DNA from: Escherichia phage vB_EcoM_IME392
Strand: one strand, 5' to 3'
DNA: 64,000 nt
Sequence record: MH719082.1
The notes under the pieces were generated by a model. The model did no database searches and was not told the DNA's origin. It was given only the letters and a program-made list of their open reading frames with translations. Positions within the stretch are counted from its first letter, which is position 1, and each line of letters begins with the position of its first letter. Positions 50,358 to 58,911 of this stretch are shown one piece after another. The position numbers were made by a program, and so were the translations under genes.

Positions 50358-51005
50358 ATGAGCGTTACACTTGACCAGCTGAAGAAGTTCCTCCCGACAA
50401 CTTCAACGGAAGTGCTGGAAAAGCTGCTACCCGCCATTAATACTACTATCGAGCGTTACGGTATCAATACCAATCGTCGTCTGCGCTATTTTATGGCGCA
50501 GACTGCCTTTGAAACTCGGGACTACACTAAGTTTGTGGAGTCCCTGTATTATACCTCTGCGTCTCGTCTGGTAGCTGTGTGGCCGAGTAGATTTACTCTT
50601 CGCGGTGAACCTGGTAAGCTTAATGCTAATGCTTACATACGCGACCCTGAGAAGTTAGCCAATCAGGTGTATGCTAATCGCATGGGTAACGGAACTCCAG
50701 CTAGCGGAGACGGGTATAAGTACATTGGCCGTGGAGCTATGCATCTAACTGGCAAAGCTAACTATCGAGAGGCCTCTTTGAGTATCTTTGGCGATGACCG
50801 TTTGGTAGAAGATCCAGAGTTAGTAGAGACGGATTTCGAAACGATCATGCTTACTGCAGGGTGGTTCTGGGATAAAAATAAATTAAATCAATTAGCAGAT
50901 CAGGACGCATTCACCAAAGTAACCCAGAAGATAAATGGGTCTGCTGCGACCGTACCTGACCGACTGCCTGTACTACGCAGAGCAAATCAGACTTTAACTC
51001 TTTAA
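50358..51005 (+). CDS. endolysin, GH19-like lysozyme/chitinase family
   Basis: 215 aa; YFMAQTAFETRDY and YKYIGRGAMHLTGKANY. Confidence 0.7.
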   Translation: MSVTLDQLKKFLPTTSTEVLEKLLPAINTTIERYGINTNRRLRYFMAQTAFETRDYTKFVESLYYTSASRLVAVWPSRFTLRGEPGKLNANAYIRDPEKLANQVYANRMGNGTPASGDGYKYIGRGAMHLTGKANYREASLSIFGDDRLVEDPELVETDFETIMLTAGWFWDKNKLNQLADQDAFTKVTQKINGSAATVPDRLPVLRRANQTLTL

Positions 51006-51019
51006 TATGGTGATCAATA

Positions 51020-51436
51020 ATGGACAATATCCTGGATGTGATCGATGGCACCAAGATTGATGAATATATCGCTCTTGCACTAGCCATCGTCGGCTTCGCA
51101 TCAGTCCTGGTGCAGGCTCTGGAGAAGATCGCTAAGATCACTCCTAATACTAAAGACGACGAATACATTGGGGTAATTAAGAAATACCTCGGTTATGCAT
51201 CGTCCATCTTAAACTTCGTCGCTCTGAACTTGCCTAAATCAACTGCCAGGGTAGATAAGAAATCCGCCGCTCAGGATGAGCAGAAAGTGCAGACCATGGA
51301 TAAAGCTAAGCAGGTTCTTTCCGACGTAGTCCAAACTCAGGATGATCCGCACCTAGTGAGTAAGGCCACCCAGGCTATTGATGCCCTTGATTACGGTAAG
51401 TCTCTGATCAAAAATCCAGAGGGTAAAAAGGAGTAA
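51020..51436 (+). CDS. holin candidate (single N-terminal TMD)
   Basis: hydrophobic IALALAIVGFASVLVQAL; next to endolysin. Confidence 0.4.
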   Translation: MDNILDVIDGTKIDEYIALALAIVGFASVLVQALEKIAKITPNTKDDEYIGVIKKYLGYASSILNFVALNLPKSTARVDKKSAAQDEQKVQTMDKAKQVLSDVVQTQDDPHLVSKATQAIDALDYGKSLIKNPEGKKE

Positions 51437-51439
51437 GGT

Positions 51440-51670
51440 ATGAAAGCTCTTACTCTTATTCTTCAGCTTATTACCCTACTCGTATCTGCTATGCAGACTC
51501 GTTCTCGGGAGAAGAAAGATGAAGAAATTAAAAATGACCCTACTGGCGCTTGGGAGTCTAAGTTTGGTAAGCTGCAACAGCCTACCGGTACAGATGCAGA
51601 CACCGAAGATAAGGTGCGACCGTCCACCGATAGCAGCGATAGCGGAAAAAGACGGGATCAGGATTCCTAA
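51440..51670 (+). CDS. i-spanin candidate (Rz-like)
   Basis: AAGGAG RBS; N-terminal TMD LTLILQLITLLVSAM; o-spanin ORF overlaps in another frame. Confidence 0.4.
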   Translation: MKALTLILQLITLLVSAMQTRSREKKDEEIKNDPTGAWESKFGKLQQPTGTDADTEDKVRPSTDSSDSGKRRDQDS

Positions 51671-51728
51671 CGCTGAATTAGCTAAATTGGTATCTTATAT
51701 AGATTGCCTAGAGAGCAATCAGAAGTGA
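51519..51728 (+). CDS. o-spanin candidate (Rz1-like lipoprotein)
   Basis: signal peptide plus lipobox MKKLKMTLLALGSLSLVSC; overlaps and extends past i-spanin. Confidence 0.5.
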   Translation: MKKLKMTLLALGSLSLVSCNSLPVQMQTPKIRCDRPPIAAIAEKDGIRIPNAELAKLVSYIDCLESNQK

Positions 51729-51738
51729 GGAATCTTGT

Positions 51739-52071
51739 ATGCGCGAGAGGGAAGAGTCTGAGTTCGGTGGACACCAACTCGATAGGCTAGCGAGACTTGA
51801 ATCTAACCAGAAGTTTCAGGGAGTAATACTTGATCAACTTATGGAGTCTTCTCGTAAGCAGACGGAGATATTAGCGGATATCCGTGAGCTAGTCGTTGCA
51901 CAGAATTTCATGTCTAAGAAGATTTCTGACCTTGAAGATGAGCAGGATGATCTAAGGAAGGAGATTAAGGAAGTAAATGACAAGATTAAATTCTGGAGTG
52001 GCGCGTTAGCAATTATTAGTGTACTGGTAGGATTGTTTAACGACGCCATCATCGGCATCTTTAAGCACTAA
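51739..52071 (+). CDS. coiled-coil protein with C-terminal TMD (holin/antiholin or lysis regulator candidate)
   Basis: 110 aa; GAGGAA RBS; C-terminal ALAIISVLVGLF. Confidence 0.4.
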   Translation: MREREESEFGGHQLDRLARLESNQKFQGVILDQLMESSRKQTEILADIRELVVAQNFMSKKISDLEDEQDDLRKEIKEVNDKIKFWSGALAIISVLVGLFNDAIIGIFKH

Positions 52072-52077
52072 ATAAAT

Positions 52078-52112
52078 GGGACTCACTCTATCACGAGTGA
52101 GTCCCATTTTTG
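52078..52112. terminator. bidirectional rho-independent terminator at the convergence point
   Basis: perfect 11-bp stem GGGACTCACTC/GAGTGAGTCCC, loop TATCAC, T-run ATTTTTGT on + and A-run upstream. Confidence 0.7.
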
Positions 52113-52123
52113 TGTAGATTAAT

Positions 52124-52366
52124 TTAGTTATGACGATTCCACATCTCAACCATAAGTCCCAGCTCACGGTCGGCAACTGCTTCATCTTCCATATCCAAAT
52201 CAGTAACCACTTCATGGTCGTCCCATTTACAGTTAGGACACTCCAGATGTAAGTGGTTATTCTCGTCAAGACGTAGAGTTGGGTGCTCTTTACAGTTATA
52301 GCATGCCTTCACTATCCCTGCCTTACACACTCCCTCCAGTTTGATGTTTAATTTCATCAAGTCCAT
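52124..52366 (-). CDS. zinc-ribbon protein
   Basis: 80 aa; CxxC(x20)CxxC. Confidence 0.5.
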   Translation of the reverse strand: MDLMKLNIKLEGVCKAGIVKACYNCKEHPTLRLDENNHLHLECPNCKWDDHEVVTDLDMEDEAVADRELGLMVEMWNRHN

Positions 52367-52920
52367 CAGATACTCCGTACAAATAATTCCCGGAATGGTT
52401 TAATTACCCTCTCTACTTCAGCATCCATCTTAGTTTCGGACTTACCAGATAAGATGTTGAAAAGAGATACACGAACGGCCTCCCGAACCGACTCTTGAGT
52501 CATATCGGCCTTACCTTCATACGCTGCATAAAGAGTCTGACAGTTGCTAAGCAAAAATACCAGCTCCACTGCCTGATGAACGAGTTCTTGGTACTGCTGG
52601 TCTCGTTCGATAGCCTCGTTCATCTTAGGAGTGTGTGGATTATCGCAGATTTCCCAGGTCTTTACGATATCCGGATTAGCGAATACGTCAGACGACTTAA
52701 TACCTATCGACACCTTAAGCAGACGATGCATAATACCGTTATTGGTAATAGTCAGGTCATGCATAGCTTGACGAAGAGCCTGCTCGAATTCAAAGCTAGA
52801 CTCACGGACTATTACATCGTAGCTCTCAGTCTGACCGATGGGACGGACAGTTAGGACGAGTACTGCTGTGCCTCCCAACATACCGATTAGGTTGTCTATA
52901 TCCATATTACTCAAAGTCAT
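52366..52920 (-). CDS. hypothetical protein
   Basis: 184-aa ORF, coupled to neighbours. Confidence 0.5.
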   Translation of the reverse strand: MTLSNMDIDNLIGMLGGTAVLVLTVRPIGQTESYDVIVRESSFEFEQALRQAMHDLTITNNGIMHRLLKVSIGIKSSDVFANPDIVKTWEICDNPHTPKMNEAIERDQQYQELVHQAVELVFLLSNCQTLYAAYEGKADMTQESVREAVRVSLFNILSGKSETKMDAEVERVIKPFRELFVRSI

Positions 52921-53279
52921 TTCTTTACCTTCTTATAGAACTTGTGGTCGCCTATTCTGGCTGTCATTCTATAGCCCTTCCAGTTAGGCCTAACCTTTAC
53001 ATTATGAAAGTGAGTAGCCCCGAATGTAGGATCTTCACTGTATTTAACTCTTGCCGCAATATGAATAGCAGATGCCTTAGATTTAGGATCTTTCATATTC
53101 TGGTAAGAGATGTGACGGTACCACGGAAAGGTATTCCTGTTTTTAACTACCTTACATGGGCTTATACCGTATTTCTTCGCTCGGTTGAGTACCACGTGGG
53201 CTACAGCTAACTGCCCACGTTCCGACTCTCCCCTGGCCTCATAGTAGACGACCATAGCTACGCAATCGGCAGAAGTCAT
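52917..53279 (-). CDS. SleB-like cell-wall hydrolase (Hydrolase_2 family)
   Basis: 120 aa; YYEARGESERGQLAVAHVVLNR...FGATHFH...IGDHKFY. Confidence 0.65.
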   Translation of the reverse strand: MTSADCVAMVVYYEARGESERGQLAVAHVVLNRAKKYGISPCKVVKNRNTFPWYRHISYQNMKDPKSKASAIHIAARVKYSEDPTFGATHFHNVKVRPNWKGYRMTARIGDHKFYKKVKK

Positions 53280-53310
53280 AGTTCATTCCAAATTAATCAT
53301 CCGTGACGGA

Positions 53311-53688
53311 TTACAGAGATTTCTCTGTGGTGGACTCTTCCAGTAGTCCACCCAGAGCTGCGAATACCATGTTCACCGAGTCGTCAATCTCTTTGATTAA
53401 CGATTGGAGATTATTGGTATCTGCGACCATGCCTCTGACCTGGTCGCTAATATCAGCCGCACCCAACTTAGTACCTTCACCAGCCAGACTGTCGATTAAA
53501 CGAACTTTGGCCTTATTTAACTGGTCGATTTTATCCTGGATAGCAGCCTTACGCTGATTACATGCCAGAATTATGATTTGTTTTAAATCAACCTGGCTAG
53601 CATAGCTCTCGCGGAAGTGCTTTACCAGATTAGCTTCGTCGATTACCGGCAGAGCCTCTGGATGAGGTCCGTTGAATGCGTTGTACAT
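53311..53688 (-). CDS. hypothetical protein
   Basis: 125-aa ORF. Confidence 0.5.
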   Translation of the reverse strand: MYNAFNGPHPEALPVIDEANLVKHFRESYASQVDLKQIIILACNQRKAAIQDKIDQLNKAKVRLIDSLAGEGTKLGAADISDQVRGMVADTNNLQSLIKEIDDSVNMVFAALGGLLEESTTEKSL

Positions 53689-53700
53689 AATTTCTCCTAA

Positions 53701-54324
53701 TTAGAAACGATCGCGACCTACGATTGGCGCGACTGGTTTAAAGTCAGTCTGGTCGTAACCTTTGTAAAGGTCGTAGCCACCACCAGCTATCTCAGTAAAG
53801 TAGATTTGCCCGATTCTCATATTAGAACGTAGGCGTATAGTATTAGGGCTTAAATTCACGATCTCCAAAGTGAACGCTCCTTTAAAGCCGTAGTCTCCAT
53901 AGCCTGCGCTAACGTGTGATAGGATACCTAAACGTGCCATAGTACTGCGACCGTCGTAATGCTGACAGAATGCTACACCACGGTCTACCGCGCTGTTACG
54001 GTAACGTGGGTCGTAATGCGCGAACCACTTCTCAGGCAACATAGCAGTACAGTCGATACGTTCTGATGCAGAACCTAATATGAACTCCCTAGGTTTAAGG
54101 TCGTAGTATAGCGCCTCTACTTCACGATACTCCGGAAGAGTACATGGTTTATAGGGATCTACTACATGGCCATCAGGCATCTTTTGAGGAACCAGGAAGA
54201 ACGGAGCTAAGCGTACATCTACACTATTCTGTCCGATTCGTGGTTCCTGATTGTCCAGATAACTGTGATAGGTCCATAATCCCTGAGTAATTGCCTGCTC
54301 AATATAAGATTTACCAAGGATCAT
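53701..54324 (-). CDS. dCTP deaminase-like protein (dUTPase superfamily)
   Basis: 207 aa; SVDVRL and DGRSTMARLGI match Dcd blocks. Confidence 0.65.
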   Translation of the reverse strand: MILGKSYIEQAITQGLWTYHSYLDNQEPRIGQNSVDVRLAPFFLVPQKMPDGHVVDPYKPCTLPEYREVEALYYDLKPREFILGSASERIDCTAMLPEKWFAHYDPRYRNSAVDRGVAFCQHYDGRSTMARLGILSHVSAGYGDYGFKGAFTLEIVNLSPNTIRLRSNMRIGQIYFTEIAGGGYDLYKGYDQTDFKPVAPIVGRDRF

Positions 54325-54509
54325 TACGGATGCTCCAGCATGTTCTTAACAGATTCTTCATCTGTAGCTTCTACGGCAGCATTATGATTCTTGAATGCTC
54401 CCCAGATATCATCAGATACGATCATAGTCTTAGGAGCTAAGTGCTCCGAACGAATAACCGTAATCTGGTTACGGTTAAGGTCCTTAGTTAGTTGCTCAAT
54501 ATCCATCAT
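54324..54509 (-). CDS. small hypothetical protein
   Basis: start at internal ATG 54509 after GAGGAA. Confidence 0.4.
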   Translation of the reverse strand: MMDIEQLTKDLNRNQITVIRSEHLAPKTMIVSDDIWGAFKNHNAAVEATDEESVKNMLEHP

Positions 54510-54527
54510 ATTCCTCGGTTCTATGGT

Positions 54528-54560
54528 AGAATAACATTGACCTCTCCTCAAAGAGGTCAA
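54528..54560 (-). terminator. hairpin terminator candidate downstream of dUTPase
   Basis: 9-bp stem TTGACCTCT/AGAGGTCAA, 6-nt loop, weak T-tract. Confidence 0.35.
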
Positions 54561-54591
54561 TAGTAATTACCGTAGTCTAACTACCCTGGGA

Positions 54592-55062
54592 TTACTTAAT
54601 CCCGGAATGCCCAAACCCACCGTCGCCACGTTCAGAAACATCAGAGAATTTATCCACGAGCTGAAACTCTGGCTGGATAACGGGAAGGAACACCATTTGT
54701 GCGATGCGGTCGCCGTGGTTAATAACGAAAGATTCGTTACTACGGTTCCACACAGACACCATCAGTTCGCCCTGATAGCCGGAGTCGATAAGACCAACCA
54801 GGTTACCCAGTACGATGCCATTTTTATGGCCGAGGCCGCTGCGGGGAAGAATCACAGAAGCGATGTTCGGATCTCCGATGTTGATCGCCAGACCGGTAGG
54901 GACCAGGATAGTTTCACCAGGATTTACAGCGATTTTATCGATTTCATCAGTCTTAATCATCGCACGAAGATCAAGACCAGCATCACCAGCTTTAGCGTAT
55001 TTCGGTAACTCCAGAGAGTCGTCCCAGTTAATAGTTTTCTTTACTTGAACTACAGTCATCAT
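54592..55062 (-). CDS. dut: dUTP diphosphatase (dUTPase)
   Basis: 156 aa; near-identical blocks to bacterial Dut: [57 protein letters not shown]. Confidence 0.9.
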
Positions 55063-55439
55063 GATGCCCTTTTGTACTGTTTAATGAATGCTGCGCAGAT
55101 GCTGGTGAAGAGGTGATCTTTGACTCGATGCTCTTCCGGCAACCGTGAATATGGAACCATACACGGGTGCGTCTTAGCTGCGAGATCTTTGATTTCTCCA
55201 TACTTCCAGCCCTGCTCCTTTTTAGTTTTAACCCAGAATTCATGGGACTCTTCTGGGCTTACACGGTTATTGTGCAAGCAGTTATACGCTCCATCAATAG
55301 CCGACTGTTTTATTTCATCGGATGTTGCTTCCCAGCTTAATTGGGTGAAGTCTCCGATAGAGTGACAGTATGCACGATTAGCTTCGTGACATACCTTAGC
55401 CACCATCAATACGATTTCTTCTCGGGTCATATGAGACAT
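55059..55439 (-). CDS. hypothetical protein
   Basis: 126-aa ORF overlapping dut start. Confidence 0.5.
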
Positions 55440-55663
55440 TATTTACCCTTGTGACGTTGCTTATTAATCTTACGGCCTTTAGCCTTCTTAGCCGCACGCT
55501 TTAATGCGGATGCTGTGGTAGTCTTCGGGCAGCTTACCTTAGCATAGACATGACGGAATCCGTCACGGCCTTTAACTGACACTGCTGGGGTGGACCACAT
55601 ACGACTTAACCCAGCCAGAGCCATACCGATACCGCCTAACAGACCAATACGACGTGATTGCAT
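55439..55663 (-). CDS. small basic membrane-associated protein
   Basis: 74 aa; AAGGAA RBS; motif copy 18 bp upstream. Confidence 0.45.
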   Translation of the reverse strand: MQSRRIGLLGGIGMALAGLSRMWSTPAVSVKGRDGFRHVYAKVSCPKTTTASALKRAAKKAKGRKINKQRHKGK

Positions 55664-55680
55664 AGAGATTTCCTTTCCAA

Positions 55681-55715
55681 CGGTTTAACAGCCTTTGGAG
55701 GCTACGAAAGAGCGG
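55681..55715 (-). promoter_or_regulatory. conserved leftward promoter-like motif, copy 9
   Basis: CGGTTTAACAGCCTTTGGAGGCTACGAAAGAGCGG. Confidence 0.45.
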
Positions 55716-56025
55716 AATCTTCGTCAGGTAATGAATTAACGAAGTCAGCTATAACTTGAGCATGACATGGTAAAGGCAAGCAGGAGCACCCTAAAGTCTT
55801 ACCCTTAAGAGTCCGTAAGTAAGAGATGCTTATGTGGCCATCTTTTACTTGCTGATGGAACCATAGTTTATATTTCGCGATGGCTAATGTTCGGGAACCT
55901 ACGTTAATAGCGTTAGGTAAATCTTTATGGCTCCACTTATTCCCGAATATAGTACCTCTCCCAACATATAGATCATAATTAGGATTGGTACGTATATTAA
56001 CCACCCTACAAAGTTTACTCTCCAT
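55702..56025 (-). CDS. DUF4326-like protein
   Basis: 107 aa; VVNIR...YDLYVGRG...GNKWSH...LKGKTLGCSCLPLPCHA pattern. Confidence 0.45.
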   Translation of the reverse strand: MESKLCRVVNIRTNPNYDLYVGRGTIFGNKWSHKDLPNAINVGSRTLAIAKYKLWFHQQVKDGHISISYLRTLKGKTLGCSCLPLPCHAQVIADFVNSLPDEDSALS

Positions 56026-56728
56026 CTTCTACAGAATTACCCTGCAGAGCAATCATGGTATTCACCTCATGCTCCAGATCTTGTAGATCTTTTACTCGGT
56101 TAATAGTTCGAACCCAGGTCTTAGCTTCCAGCATCGCATCGAACAGTGCATGGTGATCAGACATAGACTCATGCTGGCTACGCAGTTCTTCTTTAATCAT
56201 GCGACGATCATCGAATGAGATCAGCTGCAGACTAGCCAGAGTACGGTAATCACGATTCATCCAGTGCAGGAACGGAGACTTACGACCTTTAGCCTTAAAG
56301 TACCAGTCCAGGAATCCTTGGTCGAACTCTGGTGCGTTACCGATGAAGTTCAACATCTGGCAACCAGGATCCTGTAGTACCTTAGCTACGTACTCTTCGA
56401 TGATATCCAGAGCTTCGTCAACAGATACCGGATTAGCATATGCAGCATCACGGACGGGTTTCGGGAGAGTGTTGAGCCACTCTACTACATTAGGGTCCGA
56501 CTTCATACCCAACGCCAGTGACTCTTCGCGATCGATAGTGAAGTAGACATGGGAGTAATGCTCTGGACCTATAGTTACCATGCCTACCGACAGAACTACA
56601 CCAGGCTCTTTGAAATCGAGATACTCAGTCTCGATGTCGATTGCGCAGTGATAGGAGTCGTGATATGACAGGAATCGGTTAAACAGTTTATTCGGAGCCA
56701 GATGGTGTGGCATCATCTTAGTAGACAT
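56015..56728 (-). CDS. DEDDh-type 3'-5' exonuclease
   Basis: 237 aa; Exo I AIDIETEY, Exo III HHALFDAMLEA; AAGGA RBS. Confidence 0.6.
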   Translation of the reverse strand: MSTKMMPHHLAPNKLFNRFLSYHDSYHCAIDIETEYLDFKEPGVVLSVGMVTIGPEHYSHVYFTIDREESLALGMKSDPNVVEWLNTLPKPVRDAAYANPVSVDEALDIIEEYVAKVLQDPGCQMLNFIGNAPEFDQGFLDWYFKAKGRKSPFLHWMNRDYRTLASLQLISFDDRRMIKEELRSQHESMSDHHALFDAMLEAKTWVRTINRVKDLQDLEHEVNTMIALQGNSVEDGE

Positions 56729-56755
56729 CGGTTATCCTTATCAGTTGAGGTGCGA

Positions 56756-56790
56756 CACTTTAACAGCCTTTCGAGGGTAAGAAACGGCGG
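56756..56790 (-). promoter_or_regulatory. conserved leftward promoter-like motif, copy 10
   Basis: CACTTTAACAGCCTTTCGAGGGTAAGAAACGGCGG; 27 bp upstream of start at 56728. Confidence 0.45.
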
Positions 56791-56792
56791 AA

Positions 56793-57146
56793 TTAATCTT
56801 TATTCACAGTATACCCTAGACTGGTTAATAATGTATCTACTTCAACGGCATCATATACTGGAGATGCCTTACCTACTGTGATATGATCTGTGTAATGAAT
56901 TTTAGGAGTAGTTACTTTACGCTCTCTACCCGAGAGGAATTTTACTGCATCCTCAACATTACTATTATGATCACCAGTCCAGCCATCATCAATAGCCATC
57001 TGAATAATACGGTGATGAATAGCTCGGTTTTCGGCATTCTCTACTCTAGCCTTACTCAGATTAGCCTTAGTAGTGTCTAATTCCTGTCGTACTGAGTTAT
57101 ATCGCTCTTCCCAGCGTCCGTCATGAATTTCAGTATCTTCAGCCAT
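56793..57146 (-). CDS. hypothetical protein
   Basis: 117-aa ORF with RBS. Confidence 0.5.
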   Translation of the reverse strand: MAEDTEIHDGRWEERYNSVRQELDTTKANLSKARVENAENRAIHHRIIQMAIDDGWTGDHNSNVEDAVKFLSGRERKVTTPKIHYTDHITVGKASPVYDAVEVDTLLTSLGYTVNKD

Positions 57147-57378
57147 TACGTGCCTTCTTAAGATGCCATTGTGCTACCCACCAGAATGTAGTTCCTGGTG
57201 CAGAGTAGTTATTGAATAACCCACCATTACTAAGCAGACTCTTAGCTGCTCGACGATGACCACGACGCTTCTTGCGAGGATCGAGTTTAACTGCTTGAGC
57301 TACTTGCTCATAGGTATCATAACCCACGATCTGCATGCTCCCAACCGCATTAGTTACTGCTTGGATAGGTTGTTCCAT
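57139..57378 (-). CDS. hypothetical protein
   Basis: start at internal ATG 57378 after GGGAG. Confidence 0.45.
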   Translation of the reverse strand: MEQPIQAVTNAVGSMQIVGYDTYEQVAQAVKLDPRKKRRGHRRAAKSLLSNGGLFNNYSAPGTTFWWVAQWHLKKARNG

Positions 57379-57394
57379 AATTACTCCCAACGTT

Positions 57395-57424
57395 AAATAA
57401 AAATAGCGCTCCCTAAAGAGCGCT
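57395..57424 (-). terminator. rho-independent terminator (leftward)
   Basis: stem AGCGCTC/GAGCGCT, loop CCTAAA, followed on - strand by ATTTTTATTT. Confidence 0.5.
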
Positions 57425-57432
57425 AAGATAGG

Positions 57433-57606
57433 TTAGTCTTCTTCGCCCCACTCATCATCGTAGGCCTGCTTAGGAGTCTTACCTTCATCGTAATCATCCC
57501 GCCAGGCTTCCGCATCAGCAGCGCTACCGCCACGAGACTGAGCGTATTGGTGCAGCAGTTTATGCCACTCCGCAAACGATCCTGTCTCCTTAGTCATTTG
57601 TTCCAT
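57433..57606 (-). CDS. small acidic protein (absent from ORF track)
   Basis: ATG 57606 after GGGAGGAG; 57 aa MEQMTKETGSFAEWHKLL...DDEWGEED. Confidence 0.4.
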   Translation of the reverse strand: MEQMTKETGSFAEWHKLLHQYAQSRGGSAADAEAWRDDYDEGKTPKQAYDDEWGEED

Positions 57607-57624
57607 AACTAACTCCTCCCGAAG

Positions 57625-58092
57625 TTACATTAATAATCGTCCGAGCATGTTAATACCAGTAAGGACGGACTTGTACTCCTCACGGGTCATACCCCAGAAA
57701 GAGTCTCCGTGGGTATTTCCTTCGACCAGCTCCTTAGGCCAAGTATCGGTCAATTTTTGAGCTAGCTCCCCACCTTTCGCGAATTTAATCCGGAGTAGGT
57801 GTTCCATTACGTCTACTCGCTGTTCCTTCCACGATTCAGTAATGGGTAGCTTACGTCCATATCTCTTGGCCTCACCAGGAGTATGAAGTCTAGCTATGAT
57901 AAGACGATGGGCTAGCGATGGAGACTTAGATGCTTGATAGGCATGCTCCACACTAGGGTAAGTAAGGGAGGGAAGAGTCTCGTTCCCGTAAGGATTCTTA
58001 TCCTCAATATGAACAGGATAAAAGTTAGATAGGAATCGGTACTCTCCGCTAAACTCCAGAATAGAGTTCTTGTCGGTCCAGATCCGCATCAT
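57625..58092 (-). CDS. NADAR-domain (YbiA-like) protein
   Basis: 155 aa; FLSNFYP, SVEHAYQASK, VMEHLLRIKF, LVEGNTHGDSFWGM. Confidence 0.7.
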   Translation of the reverse strand: MMRIWTDKNSILEFSGEYRFLSNFYPVHIEDKNPYGNETLPSLTYPSVEHAYQASKSPSLAHRLIIARLHTPGEAKRYGRKLPITESWKEQRVDVMEHLLRIKFAKGGELAQKLTDTWPKELVEGNTHGDSFWGMTREEYKSVLTGINMLGRLLM

Positions 58093-58658
58093 CCCTCCAT
58101 AAATGCACGTTCAATGCGGCACACATCACATAGGTCTTTACCCAGCTGACGAGTACCATGCTTCTCGCAATATCCAGTACGGGATTCACGAGTTAATTCA
58201 CGTAAGATACGCTTGGCCTCTAGATCAGCACATCCCTTATCCAGCTCAGCACTAAACTGTTCGGCACTCATAATCCCTAACGACATCTCCGCCAGCTGTT
58301 CCCTATTTAACTGGCTATTTCCGTCACCAGTTAGGAACCAGTCCTTAACCCACCAGTAGCGATAATGATGCTTGGGATGACGATTATGTATTTCCATGCA
58401 GTCGTCCAGAGTTAGGAACTTAACCTGCTTATCTTTCCAGATGAATGGTTTATCGAACGGTATGTCGTCACGATTATCGTAGCATGCCCACTGAGGAACT
58501 GGACAGCCATCGCCATCTATCATCTGGTAGTGGAACTCTACTTGCATCTGTAGCATCTCTACTCGGGAATAGAATCGTTCGTGGTAGAAGACTACTACGC
58601 TCTTACCATGCTCCGGTACAAAGTCTTCAAGACTCTGCATACTGAAATTAATTGGCAT
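58089..58658 (-). CDS. hypothetical Cys-rich protein
   Basis: ORF; start chosen at internal ATG 58658 (GGTGAG RBS). Confidence 0.45.
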   Translation of the reverse strand: MPINFSMQSLEDFVPEHGKSVVVFYHERFYSRVEMLQMQVEFHYQMIDGDGCPVPQWACYDNRDDIPFDKPFIWKDKQVKFLTLDDCMEIHNRHPKHHYRYWWVKDWFLTGDGNSQLNREQLAEMSLGIMSAEQFSAELDKGCADLEAKRILRELTRESRTGYCEKHGTRQLGKDLCDVCRIERAFMEG

Positions 58659-58902
58659 GTTTCTCACCAAGATCGCGGAGGTAGTGGAACCCTTTCGTGC
58701 ACGCTATCTCGGCCAGTTTAGTTATGATAACTGCCACGATCACGAAAGGGATTAACGGCCAAAATACCGTAGCCAATGCTGTGTAGCCACCATGCTTAAT
58801 ACGGAATCTGCCAGTCACATAGGCTGCAATCGGATAAACGATGATCCCACCGATGACATAAGCAATCATCAGTCCCACGATCATATTATCAGTAAAGTAC
58901 AT
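58648..58902 (-). CDS. small membrane protein (2 TMD)
   Basis: 84 aa, two hydrophobic segments. Confidence 0.5.
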   Translation of the reverse strand: MYFTDNMIVGLMIAYVIGGIIVYPIAAYVTGRFRIKHGGYTALATVFWPLIPFVIVAVIITKLAEIACTKGFHYLRDLGEKHAN

Positions 58903-58911
58903 AATTATTCC

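Follow-up and report, generated by a model that had tools for sequence, protein, structure and literature searches.

A probable lysis cassette with a miniature two-frame spanin pair closes the rightward operon of an EP_H11-like Escherichia phage

Introduction

The closest described counterparts of the gene pair considered here are the overlapped spanins of the P2 LysB/LysC type (Summer et al. 2007; Kongari et al. 2018, PMC6139136). We analysed a stretch of 64,000 nucleotides (nt) of Escherichia phage vB_EcoM_IME392 (sequence record MH719082.1), hereafter the window, in which four small genes, here called A, B, C and D, are located between an endolysin gene and a hairpin (Table 1). Genes B and C resemble the P2-type pairs in three respects: the lipoprotein gene is in the +1 frame and outruns that of its partner, the pair lies in a lysis cassette next to the endolysin, and the lipoprotein is short, contains proline and periplasmic cysteine, and is missed by gene callers.

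We consider it probable that the locus is the lysis cassette closing the rightward late operon of an EP_H11-like phage, composed of the endolysin, A, a miniature two-frame spanin made up of B and C, and D. The lipoprotein C would be its outer-membrane component (o-spanin) and B its inner-membrane component (i-spanin). The evidence for C is presented first, followed by that for B, for which the assignment is considerably less straightforward.

Results

The lipoprotein gene C

Five relatives of the window were compared: Escherichia phage EP_H11 (OP688485, 111 kb), which is the one cultured phage matched, at 94% nucleotide identity, and four further sequences, L039, L040, L041 and L042, making six sequences together with the window. 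The identity of protein B to that of the window is approximately 96-97% in L041 and L042, 74% in L039 and 64% in L040.

Protein C begins with MKKLKMTLLALGSLSLVSC, and its residues 1-19 constitute a signal peptide with the lipobox LVSC. Read from the sequence, the lipobox agrees with the PROSITE PS51257-type rule: K2, K3 and K5 are within the first 7 residues, residues 9-14 are uncharged, and L-V-S-C ends at Cys19. At position +2 after the lipidated cysteine, the window has Asn, L040 has Ser, and other lineages have Q, A, L or S. Asp was never found at this position in the relatives and other lineages compared, in agreement with the rule for sorting to the outer membrane (no Asp at +2). The mature protein of 51 residues contains 5 prolines and 2 further cysteines. 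A unimolecular spanin was dropped as a candidate because C has no C-terminal transmembrane domain (TMD). The gene begins 514 nt beyond the stop codon of the endolysin gene, and its Shine-Dalgarno (SD) sequence, GGGAG at 7 nt before the ATG, is kept in all relatives.

When all six frames and all starts of the window were scanned, C was the only open reading frame (ORF) with a stringent lipobox. Since mononucleotide shuffles also yield a mean of 0.5 such ORFs per 64 kb, the presence of the lipobox is not significant on its own; the significance of C comes from its position beside the endolysin gene and from its conservation. The ORF is intact in all six sequences at up to 18% nucleotide divergence, and the lipobox cysteine is present in 6 of 6 (LVSC in five, LASC in L040). 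The C-terminal helix ELAKLVSYIDCLESNQK is invariant in all relatives, and the sole indel in the B/C region, 6 nt in length, is in frame for both genes. Between the window and L040, which are separated by 38 nucleotide substitutions, C retains 75.7% amino-acid identity. With the same 38 substitutions placed at random, the ORF, its ATG and its lipobox all survived in 2.8% of trials, and no trial reached the observed identity. The frame of C was judged by this amino-acid conservation and random-substitution null rather than by substitution types, as counts of synonymous and non-synonymous changes in the overlap do not by themselves separate the B and C frames. Judged in this way, C is under purifying selection.

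The profile of C aligns over the whole mature region with lipoproteins of other phages (hhalign, 96.3% probability, E 1.8e-9). Those lipoproteins in turn hit phrog_8971 (up to 3e-31) as well as phrog_456. Both families bear the name 'Rz-like spanin', a PHROG annotation label and not an experimental result. The direct search of C from the window against PHROG gave only phrog_3198 (1.7e-3), over the signal peptide. At the level of pairwise comparison, BLASTP found no alignment between C of the window and that of phiARM81mr, so that the two are linked by profiles only. No match to C (69 residues) was present in a collection of 5.8 billion proteins, as is expected since gene callers never call this gene. 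No family in Pfam or NCBIfam matched A, B or C. In 50,697 phage genomes, tblastn with B, C and D returned EP_H11 only, plus weak coiled-coil matches for D.

The absence of C from databases might be taken to mean that 51519-51728 is a chance open frame within a real gene and is not expressed. It is called neither by gene callers nor in the GenBank record of EP_H11, where A, B and D are hypothetical proteins, the endolysin is annotated as such and C carries no annotation; the shuffles and the empty protein-database search are also compatible with chance. Absence from annotations, however, is the usual bias of gene callers, as 196 of 528 o-spanins surveyed by Kongari et al. (2018, PMC6139136) were unannotated. 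Moreover, the start, SD sequence, lipobox and C-terminus are kept in all relatives, the amino-acid identity exceeds the random-substitution null, the profile is homologous to annotated o-spanins, and the overlapped +1-frame arrangement recurs in approximately 13 lineages. We therefore regard a chance frame as scarcely credible; the conservation, the substitution null and the profile homology together identify C as a genuine o-spanin-type gene.

A nucleotide patch at 51673-51718, covering the last 17 codons of C beyond the B stop codon, is nearly 100% identical across the relatives. Similar patches are found at 51117-51146 in A and 51898-51927 in D (97-100% identity, synonymous positions included), compared with 40-80% elsewhere in 30-nt windows. 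A special nucleotide-level constraint on C was not adopted, given the patches in A and D; codon constraint, RNA structure or recombination may be the cause.

Overlap and pairing of B and C

Gene C starts 79 nt into B and runs 58 nt past its stop codon in the +1 frame. The overlap of 152 nt thus occupies 66% of the B gene. Within it, the constrained motif of B overlies the sequence-tolerant signal peptide of C, and the constrained C-terminus of C overlies the dispensable B tail or sequence beyond the B stop codon.

The arrangement is not confined to the relatives. The profile of B from the window matches B proteins of other phages (hhalign, 92% probability, E 6e-7), and B, or B' in its place, is overlapped in the +1 frame by a lipoprotein of this kind in every lineage examined (approximately 13), with the exception of one group. 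The contexts include Aeromonas phiARM81mr-like prophages, Vibrio phage 252E42.2, the N4-like vibriophages phi 1 and pVco-5, and six metagenomic lineages, and the overlapping lipoproteins bear the C-terminal pattern (E/D)LxxY(I/L)xxLE. In the exceptional group (Vibrio X29/phi 2/PVP-XSN), the lipoprotein gene is located approximately 0.8 kb downstream of B, and B stops 8 residues after its motif; BLASTP found no alignment between B of the window and that of phi 2, and the two are linked by profiles only. Wherever a B-type gene was seen among the approximately 13 lineages, a C-type lipoprotein gene was present too. The slot of B in Shewanella phage 1/4 and L036 is filled by a member of phrog_1026, 'Rz-like spanin', with a strong TMD, which supports the slot as an i-spanin position.

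Structure prediction also gives an indirect signal of an interaction. When B was joined to mature C by a 27-residue linker and modelled by AlphaFold2 with 11 paired alignment rows, the predicted template modelling score (pTM) was 0.48. In this model, B residues 21-50 had predicted local distance difference test (pLDDT) values of 84, 90 and 80, and the hairpin and helix at the C-terminus of C had values of 83-88. For B alone at equal alignment depth, the values for residues 21-50 decreased to 52, 65 and 60, and the pTM to 0.24. Through these confidence values, the model points indirectly to a predicted contact between the conserved motifs of B and C. Foldseek with the model of B and C found no match in the PDB, and sequence searches of the PDB returned designed coiled coils only.

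One Aeromonas prophage (L012, IMGVR_UViG_2639762719_000002) has a lipoprotein ORF at 2818-3189 that lacks the conserved C-terminal helix and is fused in frame to the downstream 77-residue gene, giving a lipoprotein of 123 residues. It may be a decayed or remodelled spanin.

Protein B as a candidate i-spanin

Protein B is composed of a hydrophobic or amphipathic helix (residues 3-20), a charged helix (21-32), the segment DPTGAWESKFG (33-43) and a tail (49-76); its SD sequence is GGAG, 6 nt before the ATG. AlphaFold2 predicts helices at residues 2-32 and 34-42 and disorder at residues 43-76. The ORF is kept in all six sequences, with residues 24-48 invariant and the tail varying freely, so that conservation is limited to residues 1-48. 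Correspondingly, a profile search of 1.84 billion representatives recovered 51 B-family clusters of 58-87 residues, matched over residues 1-50. Residues 3-20 form an uncharged run of 18 residues, and the mean Kyte-Doolittle hydropathy over 19 residues (KD19) is 1.59, just below the value of 1.6 that is conventional for a TMD.

Several observations weigh against the assignment of B as the i-spanin of the cassette. The anchor helix is marginal compared with that of lambda Rz (KD19 of 2.63). Across the B family, KD19 reaches at least 1.6 in 18 of 50 representatives, at least 17 uncharged residues in a row occur in 2 of 50, and an acidic or polar residue is usually found in the middle of the helix. 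The hydrophobic moment of these helices is 1.0-2.0, while that of canonical i-spanin anchors is 0.73; by these measures, the N-terminal helix of the B family is amphipathic and not a canonical anchor. Beyond the helix, only about 28 residues are conserved, with no coiled coil and no cysteine in any relative, and B thus falls short of the periplasmic helical or coiled-coil domain, long enough to reach the o-spanin, by which i-spanins are recognised. Together, the conserved part of B (about 28 residues) and C (51) may, by our estimate, be too short for the normal E. coli periplasm. In addition, B matches no PHROG annotated as spanin, its own families phrog_9219, 21600 and 24944 being of 'unknown function', and hhalign against i-spanins of the phrog_1026 type gives 1% probability. 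By the positive-inside rule, the basic residues clustered behind the helix would place the motif in the cytoplasm and out of reach of C; this argument is weak, because lambda Rz breaks the same rule. The AlphaFold2 signal rests on an artificial linker fusion and an alignment of 11 rows. As to the cassette as a whole, it includes no classical multi-TMD holin; because the endolysin is also soluble, either A or D would presumably supply the hole.

The size of B, in contrast, does not by itself exclude an i-spanin, since equally short ones are listed by Kongari et al. (2018, PMC6139136): that survey includes annotated i-spanins of 64-78 residues and pairs whose periplasmic lengths add up to as few as 62 residues, and more than 120 of its i-spanins have no coiled coil. 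The label i-spanin for B is accordingly plausible. A preliminary description of the locus had named C as an o-spanin candidate with a lipoprotein signal, starting inside B and extending past it in a different frame, and B as an i-spanin candidate with an N-terminal TMD. The first two points hold, with the lipobox and its cysteine kept in all relatives and the two frames arranged as described. For B, the partner position and the pairing with a lipoprotein are confirmed, while the anchor proves to be borderline and no coiled coil is present.

The principal competing explanation retains C as a real o-spanin type and places B, either as an N-out/C-in or as a peripheral amphipathic protein with its charged tail in the cytoplasm, together with A at holin level. 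The two might form a holin/antiholin pair, or B might be an accessory protein similar to Lcc6; the overlap of B and C would then reflect genome economy, and C would act with another partner or alone. The amphipathic helix across the B family, with its rare runs of TMD length, the strongly basic stretch that follows it, the constant adjacency of A and B with their seeming translational coupling, and the 'unknown function' of the B families are all in line with such a role. A precedent for additional small proteins is found in the Shewanella prophage LambdaSo, which besides Rz/Rz1 needs the 65-residue Lcc6 (a TMD and a 43-residue cytoplasmic tail), a factor acting at holin level (bioRxiv 10.1101/2024.01.23.576932), and a precedent for unpaired lipoproteins in the 31 genomes with a lipoprotein but no linked i-spanin that appear in Kongari et al. 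(PMC6139136). On the other hand, this explanation leaves unaccounted for that no B-type gene lacking a C-type lipoprotein gene was seen in approximately 13 lineages, that the recognised short i-spanin family phrog_1026 fills the same position in two lineages, and that the AlphaFold2 confidence of the B motif rises only when C is attached. The cassette also holds no other type II membrane protein with which C could pair. We therefore consider a role of B at the holin level unlikely, and prefer B as the partner of C.

Protein A and its linkage to B and C

Protein A has an acidic N-terminus, a predicted TMD at residues 16-34 (KD19 of 2.24), the motif KIAKITPNTKDD (TPxxKDD) and an amphipathic helix; in the lineage of the window, it is extended by a hydrophilic C-terminal region of 60 residues. 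Within the TMD there is a conserved small-residue G..S motif in which G25 and S28 are invariant. Residues 16-77 match phrog_9685, of unknown function, at 2.5e-16. Homologues of 64-80 residues are encoded directly upstream of B/C in at least 12 lineages examined. The trio of A, B and C was located at 51020-51728 of the window and in L002, L003, L006-L008, L036 and L043-L049, representing at least 13 divergent lineages including L046, whose contig starts at B so that its upstream gene lies beyond the contig. The gap between A and B is 3 nt in the window, and the two genes overlap in EP_H11; they appear to be translationally coupled.

The general features of a holin are present in A, which is small, has one TMD and a hydrophilic C-terminus and is encoded in a lysis cassette, while its short homologues end in basic tails. 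These features are generic and do not prove holin function, and no holin family in Pfam, NCBIfam or PHROG matched A. Most phages that carry the trio have a separate classical multi-TMD holin, and in the N4-like vibriophages the trio is not next to any endolysin gene. We conclude that A belongs either to the holin function, as holin or antiholin, or to the spanin as an associated third component.

The second of these possibilities can be extended to a spanin of three components, in which A would provide the stable transmembrane anchor, the weak helix of B would pack on A, and B would make the link to C. That A precedes B/C in at least 12 lineages, even in the N4-like vibriophages away from the endolysin, and that A is not needed as holin in most of these phages, would thereby be explained. 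The invariant G25 and S28 are typical of helix-helix packing, and the B helix, usually with an acidic or polar residue in its middle, is too polar to insert alone. The acidic N-terminus and basic C-terminus of A nevertheless predict an N-out/C-in topology, which would add no periplasmic reach. Furthermore, A-type genes also precede the phrog_1026 i-spanins of Shewanella phage 1/4 and L036, which have good TMDs of their own. Nor does linkage prove a role as spanin, since other phages, for example T7, also have linked holin and spanin genes with the endolysin gene apart. These considerations render an anchor shared between A and B rather improbable.

A bolder generalisation, to which we give little weight, is that the trio represents a widespread undescribed 'mini-spanin' unit of three genes, with A as an obligatory third component that anchors or regulates the amphipathic B. 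If true, the complex disrupting the outer membrane would consist of three proteins, with its inner-membrane side split between two polypeptides, and would be too short for an intact periplasm, so that it would engage only after degradation of the cell wall.

In Shewanella sp. phage 1/4 (NC_025436; L043), the region 2501-3040 encodes an A homologue, a short i-spanin of phrog_1026 ('Rz-like spanin' in RefSeq) and an overlapped, unannotated lipoprotein ORF that matches phrog_1275 at 5.6e-13 and has the atypical lipobox LGTGC. This phage is listed as 'spanin-less' in Kongari et al. (2018, PMC6139136).

Protein D

Protein D consists of a charged, coiled-coil-like N-terminal region of approximately 85 residues, of which 21 are acidic and 16 basic, followed by a predicted C-terminal TMD with KD19 of 2.26. 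Its SD sequence is GAGG, 8 nt before the ATG. Homologues were found in close relatives of this phage only. Family matches are weak: phrog_1193 'hemolysin' scored 5.7e-3, coiled-coil families of Pfam stayed below their cut-offs, and a threshold of E <= 0.1 brought up no match to Pfam XhlA. A match of D in the viral contig L005 was rejected as chance, since only the peptide ESNQKFQG is shared. As to its role, D might act as a holin or assist one.

Proteins C and D have the hexapeptide LESNQK in common, C at its C-terminus (51708-51725) and D at residues 20-25 (51796-51813), with different codons in the two genes; the D protein of L039 reads LEAGQK. The sharing is probably a coincidence.

As the product of the gene directly after C, with the long helical coiled-coil-like domain that B lacks and the hexapeptide in common with C, D could be envisaged as the true i-spanin in inverted form, its TMD being C-terminal and its N-terminal domain periplasmic. 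An i-spanin anchored by a C-terminal TMD is possible in principle according to Kongari et al. (PMC6139136). Export of a highly charged domain of 85 residues without a signal peptide is, however, implausible. In addition, D occurs in close relatives only, while members of the C family are widespread and in all cases paired with B, and the hexapeptide is not kept in D of L039. An inverted i-spanin is thus very unlikely, and B is preferred as the partner of C.

Endolysin, terminator and neighbouring genes

Table 1. Coordinates of the candidate lysis cassette of the window and of the genes at its borders.
Feature	Coordinates	Strand	Basis
ORF of 58 residues	50157-50333	+	between DUF4815 tail protein and endolysin; kept in all relatives
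Endolysin, glycoside hydrolase family 19 (GH19), soluble	50358-51005	+	phrog_181, Pfam Glyco_hydro_19
Protein A, 138 residues, candidate holin or spanin-associated factor	51020-51436	+	one predicted TMD; phrog_9685
Protein B, 76 residues, lipoprotein partner at i-spanin position	51440-51670	+	conserved core, profile homology
Protein C, 69 residues, o-spanin-type outer-membrane lipoprotein	51519-51728	+	+1 frame relative to B; lipobox, conservation, profile homology
Protein D, 110 residues, predicted tail-anchored, coiled-coil-like	51739-52071	+	C-terminal TMD, residues 90-108
Predicted bidirectional intrinsic terminator	52078-52112	both	hairpin between convergent genes
Last gene of leftward operon, 80 residues, CxxC...CxxC	52124-52366	-	ORF list; coding sequence in EP_H11; called in relatives

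Rightward genes of the window, the structural ones, occupy 8833-52071, between leftward genes at 679-8735 and at 52124-63823. The 3' end of the rightward block contains, in order, a DUF4815 tail protein (1014 residues), an ORF of 58 residues, the endolysin, A, B, C, D and the hairpin. The endolysin was recognised by its matches to phrog_181 'endolysin' (8.4e-60) and, above the cut-off, to Pfam Glyco_hydro_19 (4e-08). It has no TMD, signal sequence or signal-arrest-release (SAR) domain, with a peak 19-residue hydropathy of 0.51, and the reading as SAR endolysin was dropped because its N-terminus is not hydrophobic. The ORF of 58 residues shows no family match and no hydrophobic segment.

The stop codons of the last rightward gene (52071) and the first leftward gene (52124) face each other across a gap of 52 nt. 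The hairpin between them is 28 nt long, its stem being formed by 52078-52088 and 52095-52105 with 11 perfect pairs and a loop of 6 nt. Five T residues follow at 52107-52111 (ATTTTT downstream), and the A-rich run AAATAAAT at 52070-52077 precedes it, providing the source of a U-tract for the leftward transcript. Folding gave -27.0 kcal/mol (z -8.9) on the plus strand and -26.9 kcal/mol (z -7.5) on the minus strand. In L041 and L042 the changes are in the loop only, and in EP_H11 there is a compensatory change from C-G to T-A. In L039, a stem of unrelated sequence occupies the same place with the same A/T flanks (-25.2 and -23.4 kcal/mol). Conservation of structure without conservation of sequence is as expected of a bidirectional intrinsic terminator, and the element at 52078-52112 is classified here as one that is structurally conserved. 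A consensus terminator scan did not list the hairpin at 52078-52105, probably because the stem is prolonged into the T tail by the A/T pairs beside it.

The preliminary description had delimited a lysis cassette at 51020-52112, with two further small membrane proteins flanking the spanin pair and a hairpin with an 11-bp stem at the point of convergence. All of its coordinates and sequence features are correct. The cassette is corroborated by the GH19 endolysin directly upstream, the membrane proteins correspond to A and D, and the hairpin is supported by folding on both strands and by its conservation in relatives. The elements of that span are indeed present, while the endolysin gene falls outside it and the linkage of A through phrog_9685 had been missed.

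Beyond the terminator, the leftward operon contains a second peptidoglycan hydrolase, separate from the GH19 endolysin, at 52917-53279 (-), a SleB-like cell wall hydrolase of 120 residues (Pfam Hydrolase_2 at 2.5e-20, phrog_938). Small TMD proteins outside the cassette are encoded at two places of the window only, 58648-58902 (-), with 84 residues and two hydrophobic segments, and 62037-62264 (-), with 75 residues, both in the leftward operon; they are possible holin or superinfection-exclusion candidates. Genes for a dCTP-deaminase-like protein and a dUTPase are located at 53701-54324 (-) and 54592-55062 (-). EP_H11 is listed among phages predicted to carry hypermodified thymidine (PMC12686479; bioRxiv 10.1101/2025.03.26.645540), and one of these two reports cites WBU87719.1, a homologue of a 207-residue protein of the window. 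The sole Rfam matches in the window are tRNA-Met (CAU) at 5645-5720 (-) and tRNA-Arg (UCU) at 6190-6265 (-).

Discussion

In the scheme that we favour, the endolysin would first accumulate in the cytoplasm. Opening of the inner membrane by a holin (A and/or D in this scheme) would then let it degrade the cell wall. The complex of B, on the inner-membrane side, with the lipid-anchored C would destroy the outer membrane, the DPxxxWxxxF helix of B being bound to the conserved C-terminal hairpin-helix of C. The hairpin at 52078-52105 would stop transcription from both directions.

The practical consequence concerns annotation. Records of EP_H11-like phages show six 'hypothetical proteins' in this region and no o-spanin gene, and labels can now be given to the cassette. 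The phiARM81mr-like Aeromonas prophages, several groups of Vibrio phages and Shewanella phage 1/4 need the same correction. The trio of A, B and C, with a marginally anchored protein in the i-spanin position, also offers a genetically tractable case in an E. coli phage, in which the minimum length of a spanin and a possible need of spanins for accessory factors could be studied.

Compared with the P2-type pairs, B of the window is only 76 residues long, with approximately 28 conserved residues past the anchor, and contains neither a coiled coil nor cysteine; its anchor helix is borderline in the window and amphipathic across the family. The overlap of 66% of the upstream gene contrasts with 8-40% for the overlapped pairs examined from Table S4 of Kongari et al. 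(PMC6139136), and in the window type a third conserved membrane-protein gene always stands before the pair. The o-spanin lipoproteins of phrog_8971, 456 and 1275 from Vibrio, Aeromonas and Shewanella phages are similar to C in size (67-76 residues), lipobox, proline-rich N-terminal half and C-terminal amphipathic helix (E/D)LxxY(I/L)xxLE, in line with the profile match described above. In contrast to them, C of the window does not reach the models directly and represents a divergent branch in E. coli phages. Short i-spanins of 64-78 residues (phrog_1026, and those of PhiP27, 7-7-1, phi1402, phi1422 and Phi1M2-2 in the tables of the same survey) share with B its size and its position by an o-spanin gene, but have no detectable similarity to B, and their TMDs are strong (KD19 of 2.7-3.1 vs 1.59).

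For A, or for B if it were to act at the holin level, possible functional analogues are Lcc6 of LambdaSo (bioRxiv 10.1101/2024.01.23.576932) and the Mu releasin gp25, small proteins with a single TMD and a cytoplasmic tail that are needed besides holin, endolysin and spanin. The lcc6 gene, however, is far from the lysis genes, and LambdaSo and Mu use SAR endolysins, whereas the endolysin of the window is soluble. Protein D resembles XhlA of the Bacillus prophage PBSX (phrog_1193) in its predicted N-terminal coiled coil and C-terminal TMD and in its location in a lysis module, although the sequence match is marginal (5.7e-3) and XhlA is known from phages of Gram-positive hosts. The hairpin has the composition of other bidirectional Rho-independent terminators, GC-rich with an A-run upstream and a T-run downstream, and shows nothing unusual. 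The lysis module and its terminator are otherwise standard; what is left as new in this locus is the atypical partner protein B and the always-linked gene of phrog_9685.

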